DNA of 64,000 nucleotides from an uncultured Candidatus Saccharibacteria bacterium (GCA_964648765.1 CAZYLF010000001.1:293797-357796); one strand, 5' to 3'; counted from the first letter of the stretch, positions 53,693 to 62,585 are shown. The notes: generated by a model not told the origin, from the letters alone. Numbers and translations are program-made.

Positions 53693-54196
53693 TTAAGTAG
53701 TTTGCGGTAGACTGATGAACTTTTGAATTGTGTAGTCGATTAACTCCTTCATGTCTTCCATCCCATCACATTTGGGTGAGATGATTACAAAGTTGATCAC
53801 TTCTTTTTTTACCTCAATCTTAAGGAGACTACGTTTTTCAATCTCGTCGTTGTCGCAAGTGACCATGACGATGGTAACTTTGCTTCCGAAATGTGCCCGG
53901 AGTGTTTGGCAATACTTGATTGCTCTTGCTAGCAACCGAATGTTACAGGCGTGGACAAAAACAATAAGTTTTTTGCCGTCCTTTACTTCGGGCAGATCAA
54001 GCCACTCAAATTGCTTGAATTGTCTTTGGCGGATGTCGGTGACAAGCTCACCGCGCTCGTGGCTTTTGATCCCACTTTTGTAGCCCTTAATGAGCCCGTA
54101 AGTAAAGAATAGGGCATAAAGTTTCCGTTTACTTCCGCTCAGAATGTTTTGGAACTCCTGGCTCAAGATGAACTCATACAACTTCCAGATTCGCAT
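53693..54196 (-). CDS. Hypothetical protein. Possibly the terminal unit of the repeat-flanked array: a degenerate box + hairpin lies upstream at 54433-54506.
   Basis: RBS AAAGGAG upstream of MRIWKL. Confidence 0.5.
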   Translation of the reverse strand: MRIWKLYEFILSQEFQNILSGSKRKLYALFFTYGLIKGYKSGIKSHERGELVTDIRQRQFKQFEWLDLPEVKDGKKLIVFVHACNIRLLARAIKYCQTLRAHFGSKVTIVMVTCDNDEIEKRSLLKIEVKKEVINFVIISPKCDGMEDMKELIDYTIQKFISLPQTT

Positions 54197-54279: not shown

Positions 54280-54302
54280 AAAAAACCCCGCCAGGGCGGG
54301 GC
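54280..54302 (-). terminator. Intrinsic terminator (minus strand: CCCCGCCCTGGCGGGG + T6)
   Basis: Read directly from the sequence. Confidence 0.6.
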
Positions 54303-54432
54303 GATCAAATAGGTTAAAGCGATAGTCCAGATTGTGTGGAGAGAGCCACTCAATCTAAAAAAATCTCCTCATCCCATTCAATGCGCCCCGCTCAAGCGGG
54401 GTTTCTGTAATTATATCTTATAAATTCTTCCT

Positions 54433-54506
54433 ACGAACTCACCATCCGCCACCGGACGAATGATAAATTCGAAAAGAAGGAGAACGCACAAATGAGCACG
54501 TTCTCC
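54433..54506 (-). repeat. Array element copy 10. Degenerate box + type-B hairpin GGAGAACG(C/T)GC-AAATGA-GCACGTTCTCC.
   Basis: Shares ...CGAAAAGAAG + an AAATGA-loop hairpin with copies at 57968, 61892, 61188. Confidence 0.6.
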
Positions 54507-54522
54507 ATACTCCACAAATGGA

Positions 54523-54804
54523 TTACTTGGAATTCTCCCAACGGCACTCGATCTCGGGTGTTTCTCCCCGCTCGAGGGCGGCTGAAACTTTTGTGTGGGT
54601 GGCGATGTATATCTCGCAGTACCTGTCTTTGTCGTCGACGGCGTAGACGTCACCATTTTGACCATGCTGCAGTAATCTCACCACCTTCCCTTTGGTGTAG
54701 GGCGGCACTTCATCAGGAATTTTTTCAGACCCTACGGTGAACACCAGTAGCAACGTCAAAAAGACAACCCAGAGAAATCCATTCCACTTACTTCGATTCG
54801 ACAT
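54523..54804 (-). CDS. Small secreted protein (signal peptide + ~65-aa 2-Cys domain), paralog of 54822..55106
   Basis: 'YTKGKVVRLLQHG...RYCEIY(I/V)(A/S)THTKVS(A/L)ALERGETPEIECRW' is shared with its neighbour. Confidence 0.65.
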   Translation of the reverse strand: MSNRSKWNGFLWVVFLTLLLVFTVGSEKIPDEVPPYTKGKVVRLLQHGQNGDVYAVDDKDRYCEIYIATHTKVSAALERGETPEIECRWENSK

Positions 54805-54821
54805 CTCATTTCTCCTCTGAA

Positions 54822-55106
54822 TTACTTGGAATCATACCAACGACACTCGATTTCCGGAGTCTCTCCTCGTTCAAGAGCGAGAGAAACCTTCACATGCGTA
54901 GAAACGTATATTTCGCAGAATCTGCCTGCGCTGTCGATGGCGACGACTATCCCGTCTCTGCCGTGTTCCAGCACCCTCACTACTTTTCCTTTGGTGAGAG
55001 GGATATAGTTTCTTCGCGTTTCCGCCTCGGCACATAGAAAGCTACTACCCAGGATCAAAATAATTACAAAAATTACTTTGATAGAATTCCAAATCCGTTT
55101 CCACAT
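54822..55106 (-). CDS. Small secreted protein, tandem paralog
   Basis: Same family as 54523..54804. RBS GGAGAAGGAG. Confidence 0.65.
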   Translation of the reverse strand: MWKRIWNSIKVIFVIILILGSSFLCAEAETRRNYIPLTKGKVVRVLEHGRDGIVVAIDSAGRFCEIYVSTHVKVSLALERGETPEIECRWYDSK

Positions 55107-55143
55107 CTTATTTCTCCTTCTCCCTTACTTTTGCCTTGATTTT

Positions 55144-55247
55144 TTCCAATCAACTTACGATCACACGATCGCGAATTGAAAAAGAAGATCGAGAGTCCGC
55201 ACACTCTCGATCTTTAAAATTATCCCGTGGTCTCCCGTGCGGGGGAG
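55144..55247 (-). repeat. Array element copy 1: conserved box TTCCAATCAAC(T/C)(T/C)ACGATCACACGATCG...GAA(A/T)AAGAAG, type-A hairpin GATCGAGAGT-CCGCAC-ACTCTCGATC, and CTCCCGTGCGGGGGAG hairpin
   Basis: Near-identical to the copy at 56059-56164. Confidence 0.7.
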
Positions 55248-55251
55248 AATA

Positions 55252-55545
55252 TCAGCAGTAGTCCATCGCCTTCACAGGGTTTTGATCCCATCCCGGATAA
55301 TCACCGTCGGGCAGGAACACGCTCCACTTGACGATTGCCGCCATCTTCATGTCCCGCAAGGATTGAATCACCCCACATTCAATGGCTTGATCAGAGGCTA
55401 GGGGAAAATCCTTTTTCAGGATATCACCAAGCTTCAAGAATGCTGCCAGGCTGTGGTCGTAGCCTCCGATCACGCGAATGTCGGCGTACATCTTTCCTTC
55501 TCTGTTTCGGGGTTCATCCTTGCGCCAGTATATTCTTTTTTGCAT
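55252..55545 (-). CDS. Hypothetical 97-aa protein (MQKRIYWRKDEP...), paralog of 56889..57182
   Basis: About 45% identity to the paralog, with shared 'GGYDHSL', 'DYP.W(D/N)QNP'. RBS AGAGAGAAGGAAA. Confidence 0.6.
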   Translation of the reverse strand: MQKRIYWRKDEPRNREGKMYADIRVIGGYDHSLAAFLKLGDILKKDFPLASDQAIECGVIQSLRDMKMAAIVKWSVFLPDGDYPGWDQNPVKAMDYC

Positions 55546-55576
55546 TTTCCTTCTCTCACTTTCTTTGTCTTGAATT

Positions 55577-55612
55577 GTTTCCAATCAACTCACCATCGCT
55601 CGTGATGAGTAC
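55577..55612 (-). repeat. Array element copy 2 (degenerate box only)
   Basis: TTCCAATCAACTCACCATCGCTCGTGATGAG. Confidence 0.45.
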
Positions 55613-56029
55613 TTATTTAGTCCCAGCTAAACACCCATGAATTTTCTCACCAACTTTCAAGAAGATCCATTTTCCTGAACTTGTTGCGTCACCGTTTCCA
55701 AGATAAATTGTTCGAACGAACCATCCGTCCCGAACAACGGCGAACCCTAAGCCGTTTACTGTCCCGCTCCCAACGATGACGTCCCAGTTCCTGTTTAACA
55801 GAAACTTTCTGCTCGTCGCGTCGGTGTTGATGGGGATACCTACCCCCTTATTAATGCCTATTGTCCACATCGTTATCATGGACATCAGAAAGAAGACCAA
55901 CCCAATTGTAAGGTGAATAATCGGTCCGCCTTCAGGCCCAGTGGAAATTGTGGCTCCAGCACACACGAGATTGTAGATCGAGATTGCGCTTACGGTCAGA
56001 AATAGTAACCAATCATGAATCTTAGACAT
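55613..56029 (-). CDS. Hypothetical membrane protein (3 TM helices + C-terminal domain)
   Basis: RBS AAAAGGAGAA upstream of MSKIHDW. Confidence 0.55.
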   Translation of the reverse strand: MSKIHDWLLFLTVSAISIYNLVCAGATISTGPEGGPIIHLTIGLVFFLMSMITMWTIGINKGVGIPINTDATSRKFLLNRNWDVIVGSGTVNGLGFAVVRDGWFVRTIYLGNGDATSSGKWIFLKVGEKIHGCLAGTK

Positions 56030-56058
56030 CCTGATTCTCCTTTTGTAATTTCTTGTTT

Positions 56059-56164
56059 CTTCCAATCAACTCACGATCACACGATCGCAGGTTGAAAAAG
56101 AAGATCGAGAGTCCGCACACTCTCGATCAATGATCAATATAATCTTGTACTCCCGTGCGGGGGA
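56059..56164 (-). repeat. Array element copy 3 (box + type-A hairpin + CTCCCGTGCGGGGGAG hairpin)
   Basis: Read directly from the sequence. Confidence 0.7.
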
Positions 56165-56199
56165 GTTAATGCTGAAACGGCCGACCCCCCATATGTTGG

Positions 56200-56751
56200 C
56201 TACGAGGTGTGTGCCGCCTTTTTGCTTGCTCCAGGGAGAAACTCAGCCTGAAGCTGATTCAGCCGATTGGTTGTAGTAGTTTCTTCCCACGCCTTATTGT
56301 ACTCGCGAAGAGCAACATTCAAGTGATCGGCTAGGTCGCCACAATTCCTTCTGATCTGCAAGATTGTTTCCTCATCGCCCTGGACCGCGTCCACGATTGA
56401 TTGAGCAAAAGCCGCTTCTTCATTGGGCGCTTCATCCCACATTCTTTTTACTAGTTTGGTGAAGGCTAGTCTCCCTAGTTGCATCTGACCGCCAGTCGCT
56501 AGTGGGGAAAAAGAGAAAAGCCTCTTTTTTTCTCCAGTTGCGTCTTGGGTGTCAGTGATGACACCGAGGGCGGTGAGAACTCCTTCAAGCTTGGCTTCCA
56601 TGCCTCGCGTACACAGAATCTCGAACATCTCATCCCGCCGACTCATCCGTCGCCTTTCTTGCCAGTCGCTGACTACCTTCATCGTTATCAGTATGATGAC
56701 GATGATAGTCGCCAGCATCAAAATAGTGATAGGCATAAATTCCAGTTCCAC
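56200..56751 (-). CDS. Hypothetical protein with N-terminal TM anchor
   Basis: GTG start with GGAGA RBS. Confidence 0.5.
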   Translation of the reverse strand: MELEFMPITILMLATIIVIILITMKVVSDWQERRRMSRRDEMFEILCTRGMEAKLEGVLTALGVITDTQDATGEKKRLFSFSPLATGGQMQLGRLAFTKLVKRMWDEAPNEEAAFAQSIVDAVQGDEETILQIRRNCGDLADHLNVALREYNKAWEETTTTNRLNQLQAEFLPGASKKAAHTS

Positions 56752-56779
56752 TGTTGTCTCCTTAAAATTAGACTACCAA

Positions 56780-56884
56780 CCCTCTTCTAACGAGCTCACC
56801 ACACACGTGACGAGTTCGAAAAGAAGATCGAAGCCCGCACGCTTCGATCTTTAAAATTATCCCGTTGCCTCCCGTGCGGGGGAG
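56780..56884 (-). repeat. Array element copy 4 (degenerate box + type-A hairpin variant GATCGAAGC-CCGCAC-GCTTCGATC + CTCCCGTGCGGGGGAG)
   Basis: The stem shows compensatory changes relative to copies 1 and 3. Confidence 0.65.
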
Positions 56885-56888
56885 AATA

Positions 56889-57182
56889 TCACCAGCTGTA
56901 GTCCATCAGCGGCGGGTTCTGATTCCAGTCAGGATAATCACCCCGATCCAGGAATCCACTCCACACTGCAATGGCCATTCCACTCATGTCGACTGAGCCA
57001 CTGGTTACCCCCAACACAATGTTGAGATCATTTGCCTGCGGAAAATCCTGTTTCAGGATCTCCACAAGTTTCTGATATGCGCCCAGGCTGTGGTCGTAGC
57101 CTCCGACCACCTGTACGTTTGCGTACATTTTGCCCTCCGCATTTTTTGGTTGCTCCCTGCGCCAATAAATTCTCTTTTGCAT
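56889..57182 (-). CDS. Hypothetical 97-aa protein (MQKRIYWRREQP...), paralog of 55252..55545
   Basis: See paralog. Confidence 0.6.
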   Translation of the reverse strand: MQKRIYWRREQPKNAEGKMYANVQVVGGYDHSLGAYQKLVEILKQDFPQANDLNIVLGVTSGSVDMSGMAIAVWSGFLDRGDYPDWNQNPPLMDYSW

Positions 57183-57213
57183 TTTCCTTCTCTCTTTCTC
57201 TTTTTTGAATCGT

Positions 57214-57275
57214 TTCCAATCAACCCACGAGCACACGCTCGCCGGGTTGAATAAGAAGGGGAACCGAAGTTCCCC
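57214..57275 (-). repeat. Array element copy 5 (box + hairpin GGGGAAC-CGAA-GTTCCCC)
   Basis: Read directly from the sequence. Confidence 0.65.
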
Positions 57276-57380
57276 GTGCTGGTCAGACTTTTTCATCACC
57301 CAGAATTGGCGACCAACTCAACTTGGGCTGCATTTACACCTCATTTTACCTCTACCTTTCTCCCGGCCTGGGGAAATGTA

Positions 57381-57614
57381 TTACAGATCGCCTCGGCCCG
57401 TGAGTTCTCCCCACGAGGCACTGACGGTGAAGATAATTACCGTCAACACTGTGGCCGCTTGAGCCACATTGTGTTTGAAGTTGTCGGGGTAATCCGTCAG
57501 CCACCAAAAGACTCCCATCCCCGCAACTTCTACGGTGGCGATTACTGCCCACCGCTTGATAAATCGCTTGCTCCGTTCTTTTTGTAGCAACAGATACTTT
57601 CCCAGAAATCCCAT
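57381..57614 (-). CDS. Small membrane protein (77 aa, start MGFLGKY)
   Basis: RBS GGAGAGGAG, then 8 nt, then ATG. Confidence 0.5.
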   Translation of the reverse strand: MGFLGKYLLLQKERSKRFIKRWAVIATVEVAGMGVFWWLTDYPDNFKHNVAQAATVLTVIIFTVSASWGELTGRGDL

Positions 57615-57666
57615 CTCAAATCTCCTCTCCAGCATCTTTTGCTGGTAAAAGTTTGCAATTATTCGC

Positions 57667-57903
57667 TCACTTCTTTTTTGGTTTACTCCGTAGGCCACTG
57701 AAGACGAACTTTAGGCCGATCAGGATCACCACTAGCACCAGCAGTGATTCAAAAATTGGCCTAACCTCATGAGTTAAACTAGTCAGCGATGATTGAATCA
57801 CCCCTGGCCAAATTTTACTCACGACTGCCGCCGCCGCGATCACAACGCAACACACCAAAAACCGCTTCGGCGTGCCGATGAAAAAATTCAACCATTCTTT
57901 CAT
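57667..57903 (-). CDS. Small 2-TM membrane protein (78 aa, start MKEWLNFF)
   Basis: RBS GGAAAGGAAAAACC upstream of the ATG. Confidence 0.5.
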   Translation of the reverse strand: MKEWLNFFIGTPKRFLVCCVVIAAAAVVSKIWPGVIQSSLTSLTHEVRPIFESLLVLVVILIGLKFVFSGLRSKPKKK

Positions 57904-57925
57904 GGTTTTTCCTTTCCAATTTTCT

Positions 57926-57997
57926 TCCAATCAACTCACGATCACACGATCGTAGGCTGAATAAGAAGGGGGAGGTTGCAAATGAGCAACGTCCCCC
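57926..57997 (-). repeat. Array element copy 6 (box + type-B hairpin variant GGGGGAGGTTGC-AAATGA-GCAACGTCCCCC)
   Basis: Compensatory T:A insertion relative to copy 9. Confidence 0.7.
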
Positions 57998-58048
57998 GAT
58001 AAAGAACTATTTAAAGACACTTAATGGCTGTCTCTTTTAGCCAAAACT

Positions 58049-60529
58049 TTACTTAATGTCCACACCCGCACTTCGAAGGAGGTCACCAAGGGAACTCCCA
58101 AGTACTTCCTTCGAGTTTAAGGTTACCGGTTTCGACGCGGCTCGCCTTGAAGCCTCTGCCGCTATTCTGGCTTTTTCATTTTCAGCTTGTTGTCGCATCC
58201 TTTCTTGGGCGGCGACACGAGTTGTTTCGGCTTCAGCCAACTGCTTTGCAATTGTCTCGTCGCGAACCCGATTGAGCTCAGTCTGTTCGGCACGATATCG
58301 ATCCATAGCTTCTTGTTGACGGAGTTTTTCCGCCTTCTGGTTAACTATGTCTGCGATAAGGCTATTCCGAACAGCCACAGCCTCGTTATAACTTCGAAAC
58401 CAGACAGACTTTGTGCTGCCGTACCAGCGAGAATACTCCCATGTTCCGAAGACCATGAGATCCTCGCTGGTTTCTGGATGAGACCCAACAATGCAAGTTT
58501 GCACTGGCGGTACTGATGTCTCATCATTCATATCTACGCGGGGGAGTTCCGGCTTCTGGAACGTCGCGTACATATGTTCCACCCTCACTCGAGTTGCCTC
58601 GGGGTGGGTGGGGTCCGGCACGATTTCTTCCCGCACCTTGTGACTGTTGAAGTAAAACTCAGTGGTAGAAACCACCATGTTTTTCTCCCGGTCGAAGGTG
58701 GGGTTGATGCCCGTTTTTGTTTCCACCAACTGTGGAGCAACTTCAACTAGCCAATTCGGGTCAACCTTTGTCGCCATCCTCACCAAGTGGAGCGTAGTAA
58801 GACCACGTCTCGTTTGGATTTGGAGATCGAACGGCAGTCCAACCAACCACTCAGCACCGAACGACATACCCACGACTGATTCGCGAGCGAGTGATCGTAA
58901 TTGACCGTCACCGTTACGGTAACCGCCAAATGATTGTTTCCACAGATGATCCACCATTCCGGCGCAAATTGCCCGCAGGATATCCTCCCGCTTGCCACTT
59001 GACCTGAAATCGCGAACTTTTCCGCGGAGCGCATCAGCGAGATGTCGGCGTTTCTCTACTGCTTGAAAATAACCTTTGAGAAAAACACCTGACTCGCGGA
59101 GCTCATCCTTGCTCATGTGCCGCGCGCCATTAAATACTGCGAGCTGAGCCATGACGTCGGATGAGCGTTCTGTCGGACAAAACTTTTCCCGCCAGACATG
59201 GAACGCGTTATCTTCATAACCATCCCTCCGTATCTTGCGAGCGGTGATCTCACCTTGTTCAAGAATTGCGGCAACGTTGATAACGTCGTCAACAACTCCC
59301 AGACGCTCGGCCTCAATCACCATTCTGCCAAACTGCACCGACACCGGGAGTTTGGATACCCGGTGTCCAATTTGTGTGACTTCTCCATTTGCATCCATAC
59401 AACCAAGCGCTTTAAGTGAGCGCTTTGCTTCATGGATTTCTGCCAAGTCCGGCTGATGGAAGAATCGTAACGCTTCCATATCGATTCCGGCCTCAGCAAG
59501 TCGGAGAACAGTTTGGTCCAACCGCGTGCGGTGAATTTCCGCCTTCGGGTAAACCAAACGTTCAGCATTCGCTGGGCACCAATTAATGTAGATGCCAGGC
59601 TTGGTGCGACCGGCTCGGCCTTTGCGCTGCAGTGAATCGGTTTGTGAAATGCTCATGAGGTACAAGCCCTCAACGCCATTCACAAGTTCAACTCTTCGCT
59701 CAACGCCGCTGTCTACCACAGCATCGATGTCGTCGATCGTGACGCTTGTTTGCGCCACGTTTGTCGACACTACACACTTTGGACGCGCGTAGCTTCGGAA
59801 GCAGCGATCTTGCTCTTCCAAATCCAGCTCGCCGTGAAGCGGCAGGATTTCAGCATCGATGTCTGTGGAGGCTTTGAGTTCGGCAACCGCTTTCGCGATC
59901 TCCGATTTGCCCGGTTGGAACCAAAGAACGTTATGTCCCTCCAGAAGGAGACGACGCACGTCATTTAGTTCACTTATTCCACGTGGTTTTTCCTCCACCG
60001 GGAACTGTCTTCCGGGAACTTGGAGTATGGGAGCACCTCCAAAAAAGCTTGAGAGCTTTTCCGCTTCCAACGTGGCGCTCATCACGACCACCTTGAAGTT
60101 TGCCCCCAACTCAATTTGGTGCTTGGCCCACGCCACTAGCACCTCGATGTTCAGGTTCCACTCGTGAACCTCATCGAGTAAGAGGACACTGTGGCTGCCT
60201 GCTCCCATGAGCTCGCGCACTAGCGCTAGCCCATCGGTGCAAAACAAACACCGCGTACTTGCACTGTCTTGGCGCTCGAAGGCGGTGCGAAAGCCGACCG
60301 TCTGGCCGATCTTCTCACCGATTTCATACGCCACGCGGGAGGCAACCGTCCGGGCCGCCAAACGGCGCGGTTGGGTCACAACGATGTTGTAACCCTTTTC
60401 GAGCAAGTATTGAGGTACCTGCGTCGATTTGCCTGCGCCCGTTTCGGCGGTGATGATCACTGCTGGGTGCTCGCGCACGGCAGCAATCACCTGATCCTGG
60501 AAATCACTGATAGGTAGTCCTTGGTTCAT
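58049..60529 (-). CDS. DEAH-box (HrpA/HrpB-like) ATP-dependent helicase with C-terminal coiled-coil extension
   Basis: Walker A 'TAETGAGKST'. 'LLLDEVHEW' DExH box. 'QPRRLAAR', 'SATL' and HA2-like region. C-terminal 'EKLRQQEAMDRYRAEQTELNRVRDET...'. Start MNQGLPI with RBS GAGGAG. Confidence 0.8.
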   Translation of the reverse strand: MNQGLPISDFQDQVIAAVREHPAVIITAETGAGKSTQVPQYLLEKGYNIVVTQPRRLAARTVASRVAYEIGEKIGQTVGFRTAFERQDSASTRCLFCTDGLALVRELMGAGSHSVLLLDEVHEWNLNIEVLVAWAKHQIELGANFKVVVMSATLEAEKLSSFFGGAPILQVPGRQFPVEEKPRGISELNDVRRLLLEGHNVLWFQPGKSEIAKAVAELKASTDIDAEILPLHGELDLEEQDRCFRSYARPKCVVSTNVAQTSVTIDDIDAVVDSGVERRVELVNGVEGLYLMSISQTDSLQRKGRAGRTKPGIYINWCPANAERLVYPKAEIHRTRLDQTVLRLAEAGIDMEALRFFHQPDLAEIHEAKRSLKALGCMDANGEVTQIGHRVSKLPVSVQFGRMVIEAERLGVVDDVINVAAILEQGEITARKIRRDGYEDNAFHVWREKFCPTERSSDVMAQLAVFNGARHMSKDELRESGVFLKGYFQAVEKRRHLADALRGKVRDFRSSGKREDILRAICAGMVDHLWKQSFGGYRNGDGQLRSLARESVVGMSFGAEWLVGLPFDLQIQTRRGLTTLHLVRMATKVDPNWLVEVAPQLVETKTGINPTFDREKNMVVSTTEFYFNSHKVREEIVPDPTHPEATRVRVEHMYATFQKPELPRVDMNDETSVPPVQTCIVGSHPETSEDLMVFGTWEYSRWYGSTKSVWFRSYNEAVAVRNSLIADIVNQKAEKLRQQEAMDRYRAEQTELNRVRDETIAKQLAEAETTRVAAQERMRQQAENEKARIAAEASRRAASKPVTLNSKEVLGSSLGDLLRSAGVDIK

Positions 60530-60716
60530 TTTATCTCCTCGAGCATGGGTACTCCGACATAAAGTCGAAGCAATGACCCACCCTGCTCGGCCGCATTTAA
60601 GCGACTTCCGTTCGGCGTAATGCCTACGGCATGCGGGCAGGGTTGCCCAGGTTTTTCCATAACTCACCAACTCCTACTTAGCTGATCCCTTTCTCCTAAT
60701 TTTCTTAGGACATAAT

Positions 60717-60792
60717 TTCCAATCAACCCACGATCACACGATCGCCGGGTTGAATAAGAAGAGGGACGCAACTTGCAAGCAAGCCACGTCCC
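60717..60792 (-). repeat. Array element copy 7 (box + hairpin GGGACG...CGTCCC)
   Basis: Read directly from the sequence. Confidence 0.65.
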
Positions 60793-60948
60793 TCGTTGAT
60801 TTTTACACGCATGCACAAAGTGCACCGCAACCGGAGCCACCCGGGATTTTGTACTGTCTCCATAGTCGGAGGCCACCCGACTGGTTCAGAATCTATACTT
60901 CACTATGCACCTCTCCCTTTCTCCCGGCCTGGGAAAATTTTCACTTTT

Positions 60949-61104
60949 TCACTTGATTGGACCGCCGTTGTAGAGCGACCAAGCCTGGGGAGACACTTCC
61001 CGATGGCTGTTGATGTTCGCCAGGTGGGCGAACAATGCCACAAGTGCTACGAGACCCACGACATTCCACTGGTACTGTTTTACGACTTTCTTCCAATTCG
61101 ACAT
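60949..61104 (-). CDS. Small membrane protein (51 aa) MSNWKKVVKQYQWNVVGLVALVALFAHLANINSHREVSPQAWSLYNGGPIK
   Basis: RBS GGGAGAGGAG 6 nt upstream. Sits between two array elements. Below the track size cutoff. Confidence 0.45.
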   Translation of the reverse strand: MSNWKKVVKQYQWNVVGLVALVALFAHLANINSHREVSPQAWSLYNGGPIK

Positions 61105-61142
61105 CTCAATTCTCCTCTCCCAAACTTAATCGGGAAAAAACT

Positions 61143-61219
61143 CATTCCATTGAACCCACAAGCACACGCTTACGGATTCAATCAGAAGGGGAACGCGCAA
61201 TTTTCATCGCACGTTCCCC
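61143..61219 (-). repeat. Array element copy 8 (degenerate box + GGGGAACGCGCA...CGCACGTTCCCC hairpin)
   Basis: Read directly from the sequence. Confidence 0.55.
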
Positions 61220-61237
61220 TGGAACTTCACGAAAGAA

Positions 61238-61801
61238 CTACAACTGGTCCCCAGGGGATGCGGGGACTTCCTCTCCTTCCTCCTCTATTACCTCCACTTC
61301 ATCGAAGGAGTTGATGGTGGCCTTGCCCGAGGCTACCAGGAACGCCTCCTCAGCGGTGAACCACCCCTCCTTTTGGTCGGGGTGCCACACGTTTTTACCG
61401 AGGACTTCCTCGGCAGCCCAGGCCCGCGCGAGCCCCCTTTCGGTGGTCTCGCATGAGATTTCGAGATAGAGATTTTTTTCCCCGGGGGCATAACAACCCC
61501 CGCACCCTGACACCTTTGTAATGGTGGTATCACCTCGCCATTCCAGGGACCATTCATGGCCGCTCAGGTTGAGATGAATGGCCTTAGCCACCCCGTGGGG
61601 GGCATCATAATCTATACTGGCCTCGGCGTAAGCTCTGGCCACTGCCGAAACAAGGGCCTCTACCGAGAGGCCACCGCCTTGCATTTTTTGTTCCACCATC
61701 CAGTTGAGGTGGTGGGGGTGGTTGGCCCCCGCGATACTGGCTGCCTTACAAAAGGCGGCGATGGCTTGCGCTGCTTGAACTTTTGCGTAGATCTTCAACA
61801 T
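61238..61801 (-). CDS. Hypothetical protein (187 aa), GC-rich codon usage
   Basis: ATG with RBS GGAGATGAGAAG. Confidence 0.55.
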   Translation of the reverse strand: MLKIYAKVQAAQAIAAFCKAASIAGANHPHHLNWMVEQKMQGGGLSVEALVSAVARAYAEASIDYDAPHGVAKAIHLNLSGHEWSLEWRGDTTITKVSGCGGCYAPGEKNLYLEISCETTERGLARAWAAEEVLGKNVWHPDQKEGWFTAEEAFLVASGKATINSFDEVEVIEEEGEEVPASPGDQL

Positions 61802-61847
61802 CTTCTCATCTCCATCTCCCGATCTTTTTTATCGGATAAAAACTCAC

Positions 61848-61919
61848 TTCCAATCAACCCACGATCACGCGATCGCAGGTTGAATAAGAAAGGGGAACGT
61901 GCAAATGAGCACGTTCCCC
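61848..61919 (-). repeat. Array element copy 9 (box + perfect type-B hairpin GGGGAACGTGC-AAATGA-GCACGTTCCCC)
   Basis: Read directly from the sequence. Confidence 0.7.
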
Positions 61920-61989
61920 TGAAACTTTATGAAAGAACTATTTTTTGACAGTTTACCGAACTGCCACGGGGAGTAGCTACCTAAACCTA

Positions 61990-62184
61990 CTACTCCAGAT
62001 TCTGGGCCGAGTTGTTCCTGCGACCAGGAGACGACTTTGTGTGGGCCCGCGAGATAGCATTGACCTCACGGATGAATTCCCATCCCCACGCTTTTTTCAC
62101 GAGGGGTATTGAATTCATGACCGCGTTCACTGTGCGAGCTACCCGAGGAAAACGATAATACATATCAGAAATCGGTGTAAACAT
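61990..62184 (-). CDS. Hypothetical small protein (64 aa, MFTPISDMYYRF...)
   Basis: RBS AAGGAGA 6 nt upstream of the second ATG. The ORF track shows a longer GTG-initiated frame. Confidence 0.45.
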   Translation of the reverse strand: MFTPISDMYYRFPRVARTVNAVMNSIPLVKKAWGWEFIREVNAISRAHTKSSPGRRNNSAQNLE

Positions 62185-62585
62185 TTTCATTCTCCTTAAA
62201 TTTTCGTACTCACTTTTGAATCGCGCCCGCCCTAACATTAGGTCGGGTAAATTTGCGATCCCTCTTGTCACACCGAGTCTAGAGTAGTTTGTAGTCCTAC
62301 CTCTCTCCGTGAGACGAAGAGGAATAACAATGATTGCCTTTCGGCAGTTGTTTCCTTTTCTCTCTATTTAATTGTTAAAGTCCTTGGATTAATACGAAAA
62401 AAAGCGATTTTTAGGCTCCTCATCGTAAATGATTGAGAGAAACGCAAAAATCGCTCTTATGGCCATCTCACCCCGGCCCCGGGCTCTCTCTCAACCTATT
62501 CCATTTTTAATCTACTCCTATTATACACCCAAATGAGTTATTTGTCAAGTTAAAGTGATGAGTTTCGCATCTAAATTTTAGGGCT

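Follow-up and report, generated by a model that had tools for sequence, protein, structure and literature searches.

We analysed a 64,000 nt-long stretch of DNA from an uncultured Candidatus Saccharibacteria bacterium (the whole stretch is hereafter called the window), and precisely the hairpins, named type A and type B, that recur in an array of open reading frames (ORFs) near its right end. Each of these hairpins is the first and variable one (H1) in a bipartite RNA element, encoded on the minus strand and hence in the sense of the genes, whose second part (H2) is a conserved, interrupted helix. Forty copies, in the window and in 13 loci from other genomes, keep the pairing of H2 while its sequence changes, and the U-rich tract after H1, which looks like the tail of a terminator, is the 5′ strand of the basal helix of H2. 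We propose, with a probability of about 0.42, that the element acts as intercistronic mRNA punctuation, that is as a processing or stability signal in a read-through polycistronic transcript; among the functions listed in an earlier note on this DNA, a processing site would be our best guess.

Each unit has the same order in the gene sense: stop codon, short 3′ untranslated region (UTR), H1, a T-rich tract (CUUCUUAUU or CUUCUUUUU), H2, the flank UUGGAAG and the next start codon, which lies 18-43 nt after H2. The stem of H1 is rich in GC, has 7-18 bp and is free in sequence; its end is 0-2 nt from the base of H2 in 39 of the 40 copies and 6 nt from it in the other one. H2 is an interrupted helix of about 17-24 bp with the consensus 5′-yYYUUAUU-stem-R-YRAW-loop-WUYG-U-stem-AUWGRRr-3′, and in the window it reads UCAACC-ng-CGAUC-GUGU-GAUCG-ug-GGUUGA. 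RNAfold returned two hairpins without a linker, in which the T-rich tract pairs with the UUGGAAG flank as the base of H2, and the units had z-scores from -3.1 to -8.6 against dinucleotide shuffles.

The relatives were reached through protein homologues of a DEAH RNA helicase encoded in the array, and after that with covariance models. Next to the two closest helicase homologues (loci L019 and L020) we found the same layout of H1, T tract, H2 and AUUGAGGA, with compensated differences. The covariance model was first built from 12 copies and then rebuilt from 23, and two search rounds were run on 83 sources (1.43 Mb in total), namely the window, L019, L020 and 80 further helicase loci. This search gave 40 matches in 14 sources, the window and 13 loci, the latter mostly from Saccharibacteria, Kaiserbacteria and other Patescibacteria, with one from a metagenome-assembled genome (MAG) labelled Fimivivens. 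All 40 matches were intergenic and all 40 were on the strand of the helicase and of the genes; 37 of the 39 copies with a scorable upstream ORF were 16-156 nt past its stop codon, and in L019 and L020 the gene that ends the island, with no further ORF behind it, also has an element on its 3′ side. Of the 82 helicase loci searched (L019-L100), 13 had detected elements, mainly those with helicases 50-75% identical, and the elements cluster within a few kb of the helicase on both of its flanks. In the window, 10 copies were counted within about 8 kb, eight detected by the model, one divergent (U6 in the table below) and one reduced to an H2 remnant (U9), and the model had no match in the other 56 kb, outside 54.4-61.9 kb.

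In the 13 modelled pairs of the H2 core 95.6% of the cells were paired, and double changes were present in 11 of the 13 pairs. The covariation score of this core was 0.749; shuffles gave 0.298 ± 0.019 and slid registers only 0.05-0.13. The columns of the basal helix are unpaired in the model, yet they pair: 5-98 occurs as UA19/AU9/CG4 and 6-97 as CG19/UA16, 7-96 is paired in 100% of the copies (CG20/UA19/UG1), and 8-95 (UG35/CG3/UA2) is a near-invariant U.G wobble (35/40). Since the columns of the T tail and of the 3′ flank co-vary, selection favours pairing of the apparent terminator tail with RNA that is transcribed about 45 nt further on, and it can do so only in transcripts that continue past H1. 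The H2 stem co-varies within the window too, where GAUC/GAUC becomes GAGC/GCUC at 57226 and AAGC/GCUU at 61157. The sequence is partly conserved on top of the pairing, with U8, U9, A10, U11, A24-U81, G83, U85, U93 and G95 near-invariant; these nucleotides are located in the upper helix and in or next to an internal loop (UAU opposite UW). Of the two halves of the element, H2 shows the strongest covariation. The proposal of the earlier note that structure and not sequence is selected is supported, and much more strongly than that note could see.

By the strand evidence, which is clear, the element is an RNA structure in the gene sense and not a symmetric DNA palindrome. The cells of the alignment held 118 G.U against 18 A.C combinations, and H1 plus H2 was more stable in the sense than in the antisense orientation in 39 of the 40 copies (-37.0 versus -27.3 kcal/mol, p = 6e-8). 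Because of these two results, of the conserved U.G and G.U wobbles and of the uniform orientation of the copies, the first of the two options in the earlier note, a functional RNA, is the likely one, as gene-sense RNA, and the second, a single-stranded DNA site, is disfavoured.

H1 was present in all 40 copies, with a median of 11 pairs, a mean energy of -16.6 kcal/mol and stems with 59% GC. Equally anchored hairpins at random positions of the same loci had a mean of -2.8 kcal/mol; a hairpin at or below -8.4 kcal/mol, the value of the weakest H1, was found at the H1/H2 junction in 40 of 40 cases and at about 10% of the random positions (end within 2 nt). As the MAFFT alignment of H1 is not structure-aware, its stem changes were scored by hand with the loop as an anchor. 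The stems are unrelated between genomes, and families within a genome differ by compensated changes. In L028, for instance, seven H1-H2 elements lie between 6018 and 12954, and five of the seven have the loop UUGGUC or UUGGUU on stems that are much diverged with compensation. UGGUU-like H1 loops were also seen in L027 and L031. These comparisons hint that the loops are constrained within lineages, and a functional role of the H1 loop is possible.

In the window, the type A hairpin GATCGAGAGT-CCGCAC-ACTCTCGATC was confirmed at 55187 and 56103, each one base away from the starts quoted in the earlier note (55188 and 56102), its variant GATCGAAGC-CCGCAC-GCTTCGATC at 56826, and the type B hairpins at 61892, 57968 and 54479. 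Three more hairpins of the same kind, those of U2, U3 and U5, had been missed. None of them is a self-contained unit; each is the variable 5′ half of the bipartite element. The compensatory changes described for the stems are real: between 56103 and 56826 one G-C pair was deleted on both arms and one T-A pair became C-G, and between 61892 and 54479, read on the minus strand, one G-C became A-U and two further changes gave G.U wobbles. On the plus strand the same two changes are C.A and A.C mismatches, so the pairing is kept only in the gene sense. The "paired insertion" at 57968 holds in part, since an A-T pair was lost and a T-A pair gained on both arms, and one uncompensated mismatch is left (G.G on the plus strand, C.C on the minus strand). 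The claimed conservation of the loops is not significant within the window, since its copies are closely related paralogues; L028 shows this pattern again.

The earlier note also described a small hairpin (CTCCCGTGCGGGGGAG), found three times (repeat family D13), with a loop said to be related to CCGCAC; its loop is in fact the exact reverse complement. In the RNA sense it reads CUCCC-CCGCAC-GGGAG, and in each of the three type A cassettes it lies 20-25 nt upstream of H1. The loop CCGCAC and the type A H1 loop GUGCGG are exact complements, the three paralogous copies counting as one independent event, and this complementarity suggests a possible kissing-loop or alternative (anti-H1) pairing. 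In the paralogous cassettes at 55120-55640 and 56756-57290 the coding region is less conserved than the 3′ UTR, the latter taken from the stop codon to the end of H1 and thus with the small hairpin, with about 94% in the segment of family D5 (3′ UTR) versus about 74% in that of family D4 (coding).

Table. Positions in the window of the H1-H2 units and of other features of the array.
Feature	Position	Strand	Description
Promoter, sigma-70	62520-62548	-	TTGACA-17-TATAAT; 12/12 consensus matches; head of the array
Array leader RNA	62223-62419	-	Helix UGUUAUUCCUCUUC...AAGAGGGAUCGCA; nhmmer E = 7e-40 to 2e-08; 8/21 pairs with double changes
U1	61844-61920	-	H1 type B 61891-61920; H2 61844-61894; 60-70 bits; two abutting hairpins, z = -8.5; 3′ of the 93-aa ORF 61990-62271
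U2	61141-61220	-	H1 61187-61220, type B stem with another loop; H2 61141-61191 with compensated stem variants UGAAU/GUUCA and AAGC/GCUU; model match and H1 fold; 3′ of a 187-aa ORF
U3	60713-60794	-	H1 60761-60794 (15 bp); H2 60713-60764; helicase leader directly after
Helicase leader RNA	60529-60690	-	Immediately 5′ of the start codon of the helicase; 11 other loci have it upstream of theirs
DEAH/RHA (HrpA-like) RNA helicase, 826 aa	58049-60532	-	Pfam
U4	57921-57997	-	H1 type B 57968-57997, one C.C mismatch; H2 57921-57971; 3′ of the helicase gene
U5	57210-57275	-	H1 57258-57275, GGGGAAC-UUCG-GUUCCCC; H2 57210-57261, GAGC/GCUC in place of GAUC/GAUC
U6	56776-56850	-	H1 type A 56826-56849; divergent H2, missed by the model, still folding as a long interrupted helix with CUUCU paired to AGAAG at its base; z = -3.1
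U7	56056-56128	-	H1 type A 56103-56128; H2 56056-56106; model match and fold
U9	55576-55612	-	Degenerate H2-only remnant without H1; weak fold, z = -1.9; undetected by the model; begins directly after the stop codon of ORF 55613-56029
U8	55140-55213	-	H1 type A 55187-55212; H2 55140-55190; model match
Small hairpin	55232-55247; identical copies 56150-56165, 56869-56884	-	Family D13
U10	54424-54506	-	Last of the array; H1 type B 54479-54506, two G.U wobbles; H2 54424-54482, helix of about 24 bp; 27 bits; z = -8.6
Intrinsic terminator	54285-54302	-	Canonical (GC stem and TTTTTT); closes the array; terminator scan

To place the element among known RNAs, we searched Rfam with the window, L019 and L020. 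At gathering thresholds only tRNAs passed, and at a permissive threshold the best match in the array was P31, with 25.6 bits against a threshold of 40 (E = 0.22). The exact or degenerate core sequence of the window had no match in species-representative genomes or in viral contigs, and its 16 matches in JGI metagenomes were all unrelated; the sequence variant of this window is apparently unique. A literature search on integrons or structured RNAs in Patescibacteria, or on this helicase island, returned nothing relevant. The RNA motif is solid, has no Rfam match and is undescribed in the resources queried. We class it as a new family of RNA motifs, namely a composite element between cistrons, with a putative function.

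As for this function, we infer read-through of H1 because no good internal promoter was found, because H2 is only 18-43 nt from the next start, because the U tracts are short and interrupted and because pairing is selected past H1. For a stable, variable hairpin that stacks, between cistrons, on a conserved helix of about two turns, punctuation would be the most economical role. In the mechanism that we favour, the island would be transcribed from one promoter as a polycistronic RNA, and each H1-H2 module would mark a cistron boundary, the H2 helix or the H1/H2 junction being the site for a double-strand-specific or structure-guided RNase (RNase III type). An endonuclease cut in or beside H2 would leave the upstream cistron with a protective 3′ hairpin (H1, or H1 and part of H2), and the downstream cistron would have a 5′ structure and begin near its ribosome-binding site. 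A signal of stability and insulation would thus come with each cassette acquired by horizontal transfer, and the co-transferred DEAH RNA helicase may remodel the H1-H2 structures. H2 fits the geometry of an RNase III site, with 17-24 predicted pairs (about two turns), a conserved 3x2 internal loop and direct stacking on H1. The early mRNA of phage T7 and other operons are processed by cleavage at intercistronic hairpins, and the RNase III hairpins of T7 early mRNA and lambda sib are similarly long, interrupted, intercistronic hairpins with a conserved internal loop that form only in read-through RNA; H2 differs from them in being shorter, more conserved in sequence and always preceded by a variable hairpin, and cleavage is here only a proposal. 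The RNA helicase HrpA has been implicated in RNA processing (PMC8325345, PMC3868530).

Several points weigh against this reading of the element as mRNA punctuation. Many of the 40 copies are within-genome paralogues, hence the independent events are fewer than the cells counted, and the alignment by covariance model is biased towards the modelled core helix of H2. The cut itself is only inferred, and H2, with about 17-24 bp and internal loops, is at the short end for bacterial RNase III substrates. The near-invariant nucleotides suggest sequence-specific recognition by a protein, which RNase III alone does not explain. Finally, H1 with its T-rich tract passes a lenient terminator scan (a GC hairpin and then at least 5 T in 8 nt), and partial termination is possible.

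This last point leads to the first of the rival explanations, leaky intrinsic terminators with antitermination. According to it, H1 and the U tract terminate transcription after each cassette, and the distal cassettes need a terminator-resistant RNA polymerase, with a resistance conferred by the leader RNA of the array (like put or EAR) or by factors that load anew at every junction; the role of H2 would be a secondary one, for instance sequestering the tract after read-through. The element does resemble an intrinsic terminator in having a GC-rich hairpin 3′ of an ORF and then a T-rich tract, and in the compensatory evolution of a stem with free sequence. In all 40 copies H1 qualifies as a terminator hairpin, and the scan detects six of the elements on the minus strand. 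Only one strong promoter is present, at the head of the array, together with a conserved leader that has its own terminator-like hairpin, and the junction motif U8, U9, A10, U11 is kept in 33-40 of the 40 copies. The tract yCUCUUUAUU is moreover boxA-like (boxA is GCUCUUUA) and follows a boxB-like variable hairpin. The U tract passes the lenient scan, but the longest U run after H1 is 3 or less in 32 of the 40 copies, with C at column 7 in 20 of 40 and A or C right after the stem in some families, whereas the canonical terminators of the same window have T6-T7 and no such pairing partner. The short, interrupted tract of the element co-varies with the downstream purine tract as the basal helix of a conserved second hairpin, whereas a single-strand site of the NusB/S10 type would stay fixed; and termination cannot select pairing to RNA not yet made. 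The earlier suggestion of a terminator with a recognised loop, taken plainly, is insufficient because the T-rich tail itself is paired downstream. We consider leaky termination with antitermination unlikely as the function of the element. If the elements were only leaky terminators, they would be an unusually conserved terminator family, in which the covariation of tail and downstream RNA would still need explaining.

The second rival, which we regard as quite unlikely, is that H2, with its invariant internal loop (UUAUU opposite AUWG) and its conserved U.G and G.U wobbles, is a specific binding or loading site for a protein of the island. The first candidate to consider would be the DEAH helicase, whose 5′ UTR starts with H1-H2 and goes on with a second, conserved leader, and its binding would regulate translation or decay, or package the RNA. 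This would account for the sequence conservation on top of covariation, for the elements in 13 of 82 helicase loci, clustered near the helicase on both flanks, for the direct contact of H2 and helicase leader that is seen in the window, L021, L023 and L028, and for H1 loops kept within a genome (L028 and the window) while their stems diverge. Against such a role, the usual loading site of DEAH helicases is a single-stranded 3′ tail of any sequence. A binding platform is also compatible with the processing model and not exclusive of it.

The third rival places the function in the DNA, where the element would be a folded single-stranded site similar to the attC of integrons, or a short homologous junction for cassette swaps similar to the PeSLs of T4-type phages. 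An integron attC was the initial reading, from the AAC...GTT ends. The layout is integron-like, with a promoter and a promoter-proximal leader and then units of an ORF and a 3′ imperfect palindrome; the ends of the window elements resemble RYYYAAC...GTTRRRY, and the H2 stem of the window (...TTCAAC...GTTGATT) is close to attC R″/R′. Besides, cassette content differs almost entirely between genomes, the homology of paralogous cassettes starts and ends inside H2, the island of L019 is flanked by a duplicated holB 5′ end, and PeSLs are a precedent for composite junction motifs (PMC4122927). In other genomes the AAC/GTT positions read CAGC/GCUG, GAGU/ACUC and others, and the R″/R′ columns vary (13-91 CG19/GC12/AU5, 14-90 AU31/GC5/CG4, 15-89 GC13/GU13/AU11). 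An attC site acts as its bottom strand, whereas here the functional strand is the sense one, which folds better in 39 of 40 copies; its wobbles, as the U.G at 8-95 and the R.U at 20-85, would be A.C mismatches on the other strand. The element has an obligatory extra upstream hairpin, H1, and is shorter than attC (H2 is about 45-50 nt). No IntI, Phage_integrase or other tyrosine recombinase domain was found among the ORFs scanned, which were ten of 283-424 aa in the window, ten of the array region and the neighbours in L021 and L028, the remaining ORFs of the window being unscanned. For these reasons a DNA-level recombination site, which the earlier note had listed among its options, is very improbable; passive homologous exchange at the elements may occur as a side effect.

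PeSLs (PMC2839356, PMC4122927) are also short composite motifs that start with a stem-loop and are repeated at ORFan junctions of a hypervariable region, and there too cassette content differs between relatives. They differ in that their second half is a sigma-70 early promoter, whereas here it is a co-varying RNA hairpin, and in that the host is here an island of a bacterial chromosome. Identity with PeSLs was rejected, as the search for promoter-like sites found none inside the elements or directly behind them and the 18-43 nt before the next ATG leave no room for one. A promoter inside the element was considered for TGnTAGAGT, which is extended -10-like and occurs in some families; it is missing from the types of the window, L019 and L020, and the scan finds no promoter there. 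REP/BIME sequences are likewise imperfect palindromes at 3′ intergenic positions, able to stabilise the upstream mRNA, but REPs are spread genome-wide and linked to RAYT transposases, whereas the element is confined to one island per genome; this identity was discarded since the matches all fall within 54.4-61.9 kb in the window and cluster around the helicase in the other loci. The purine strand of H2 was also considered as the Shine-Dalgarno sequence of the next gene, in a thermometer of the FourU type, and was rejected because the real ribosome-binding sites are 18-43 nt downstream of it, and because the element also follows terminal genes with no ORF after them.

A wider reading takes in the whole island as a platform, horizontally mobile and previously undescribed, on which gene cassettes would be expressed at the level of RNA; in function it would be the RNA-based counterpart, in Patescibacteria, of integrons and PeSLs. 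The platform would comprise a promoter with its leader RNA, the DEAH helicase with its own leader and changing ORFan cassettes for small, often hydrophobic proteins, and H1-H2 would be the portable 3′ signal of each cassette. The helicase or another dedicated factor would recognise H2 (the UUAUU/AUWG loop and the U.G wobble), and possibly the genome-specific H1 loops, and would process, stabilise or gate each cassette mRNA; the modules would double as junctions for cassette exchange. That all these parts hold together is unlikely.

Hardly any post-transcriptional regulation has been characterised in Patescibacteria (the candidate phyla radiation), whose genomes are tiny. The island joins three conserved structured RNAs absent from Rfam (H1-H2, the array leader and the helicase leader) with a helicase of unusually high conservation between distant lineages, and the rest of it is made up of ORFan genes that change fast; new bacterial RNA motifs are not rare, and the RNA layer of this island is unusually rich. 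If H1-H2 is a portable processing or stability signal, it would explain how newly acquired cassettes are expressed from one promoter. In that case the covariance model could be used to find such islands in metagenomes, the element would be a concrete substrate for the study of bacterial DEAH helicases, and it would offer a defined part for expression engineering in the few cultivable Saccharibacteria.

The island itself is an array of ORFs at 54.4-62.3 kb, with a GC content of 46-53% versus about 43% in its flanks. All the genes of the region are on the minus strand, and one element follows each ORF, that is each ORFan cassette and the helicase. Apart from the promoter at the head of the array, the minus-strand promoter-like matches in it reach only 9/12. 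The array leader is common to six other loci (L019 7238-7430, L020 9736-9879, L054 403-544, L026 8303-8472, L024 47-155, L041 9478-9556), and its helix encloses a variable co-varying insert. In its promoter-proximal part, at about 62396-62458, there is a terminator-like hairpin with a long loop, AGCGAUUUUU...AAAAAUCGCU, and then U7. This leader may be an attenuator or antitermination RNA.

The helicase leader is highly conserved, structured and 120-150 nt long, with the invariant blocks GGAAGUC, GGCCGAGCAGGGUGGG and GCUCGAGGAG, a long-range helix and a variable co-varying hairpin. It is found, among others, at L019 9843-9980, L020 9866-10003, L021 9515-9661, L023 9835-9983 and L028 8390-8513 and 10576-10691, and where the helicase is split it also precedes the separate gene for the C-terminal domain (this domain is a separate gene in L022, L024, L026 and L028). 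It could be autoregulatory or riboswitch-like. Neither leader had a match in Rfam.

Residues 3-624 of the helicase match DHX8/Prp22, Prp16 and E. coli HrpA at E of about 1e-68 to 1e-71. The protein has thousands of homologues; the best 120 listed are 55-75% identical, and most of those with a named source are from Patescibacteria (e.g. Kaiserbacteria and Pacebacteria). The identity of 55-75% holds between distant classes of Patescibacteria, and the helicase was also seen in MAGs labelled Clostridia, Gammaproteobacteria and Bdellovibrionales, and in Actinoallomurus. This distribution suggests that the helicase was often moved by horizontal transfer. No other cassette has recognisable homology, and in other genomes the helicase anchors the island. 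PADLOC gave only weak P-loop matches for it, and the other cassette proteins had no match in Pfam, PHROGs or PADLOC (no array protein matched PHROGs); a homologue search with the 97-aa cassette protein found only itself. The ORFs at 54523-57903 on the minus strand are mostly of 51-183 aa, and by eye many of them start with hydrophobic, signal-like or transmembrane-like segments (e.g. MSNRSKWNGFLWVVFLTLLLVF and MWKRIWNSIKVIFVIILILG). Two pairs of the array cassettes are tandem or dispersed paralogues.

As for the borders of the island, no flanking direct repeats or target duplication were found around that of the window. In L019 (6728-6830 and 12693-12800) the full holB (DNA polymerase III delta′) is at the right edge, and roughly 100 nt of its 5′ end recur at the left edge in a copy with about 80% identity, which points to the insertion of a mobile segment with duplication or replacement of the 5′ end of the target; no recombinase gene was evident in that island. 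At the distal end of the array in the window there are two inverted GC-rich hairpins, AAACCCCGCCAGGGCGGGGCG at 54283-54303, which is the closing terminator, and CGCCCCGCTCAAGCGGGGTTT at 54384-54404. This pair may insulate the island from the neighbouring 167-aa ORF at 53693-54196, for which no family match was found.

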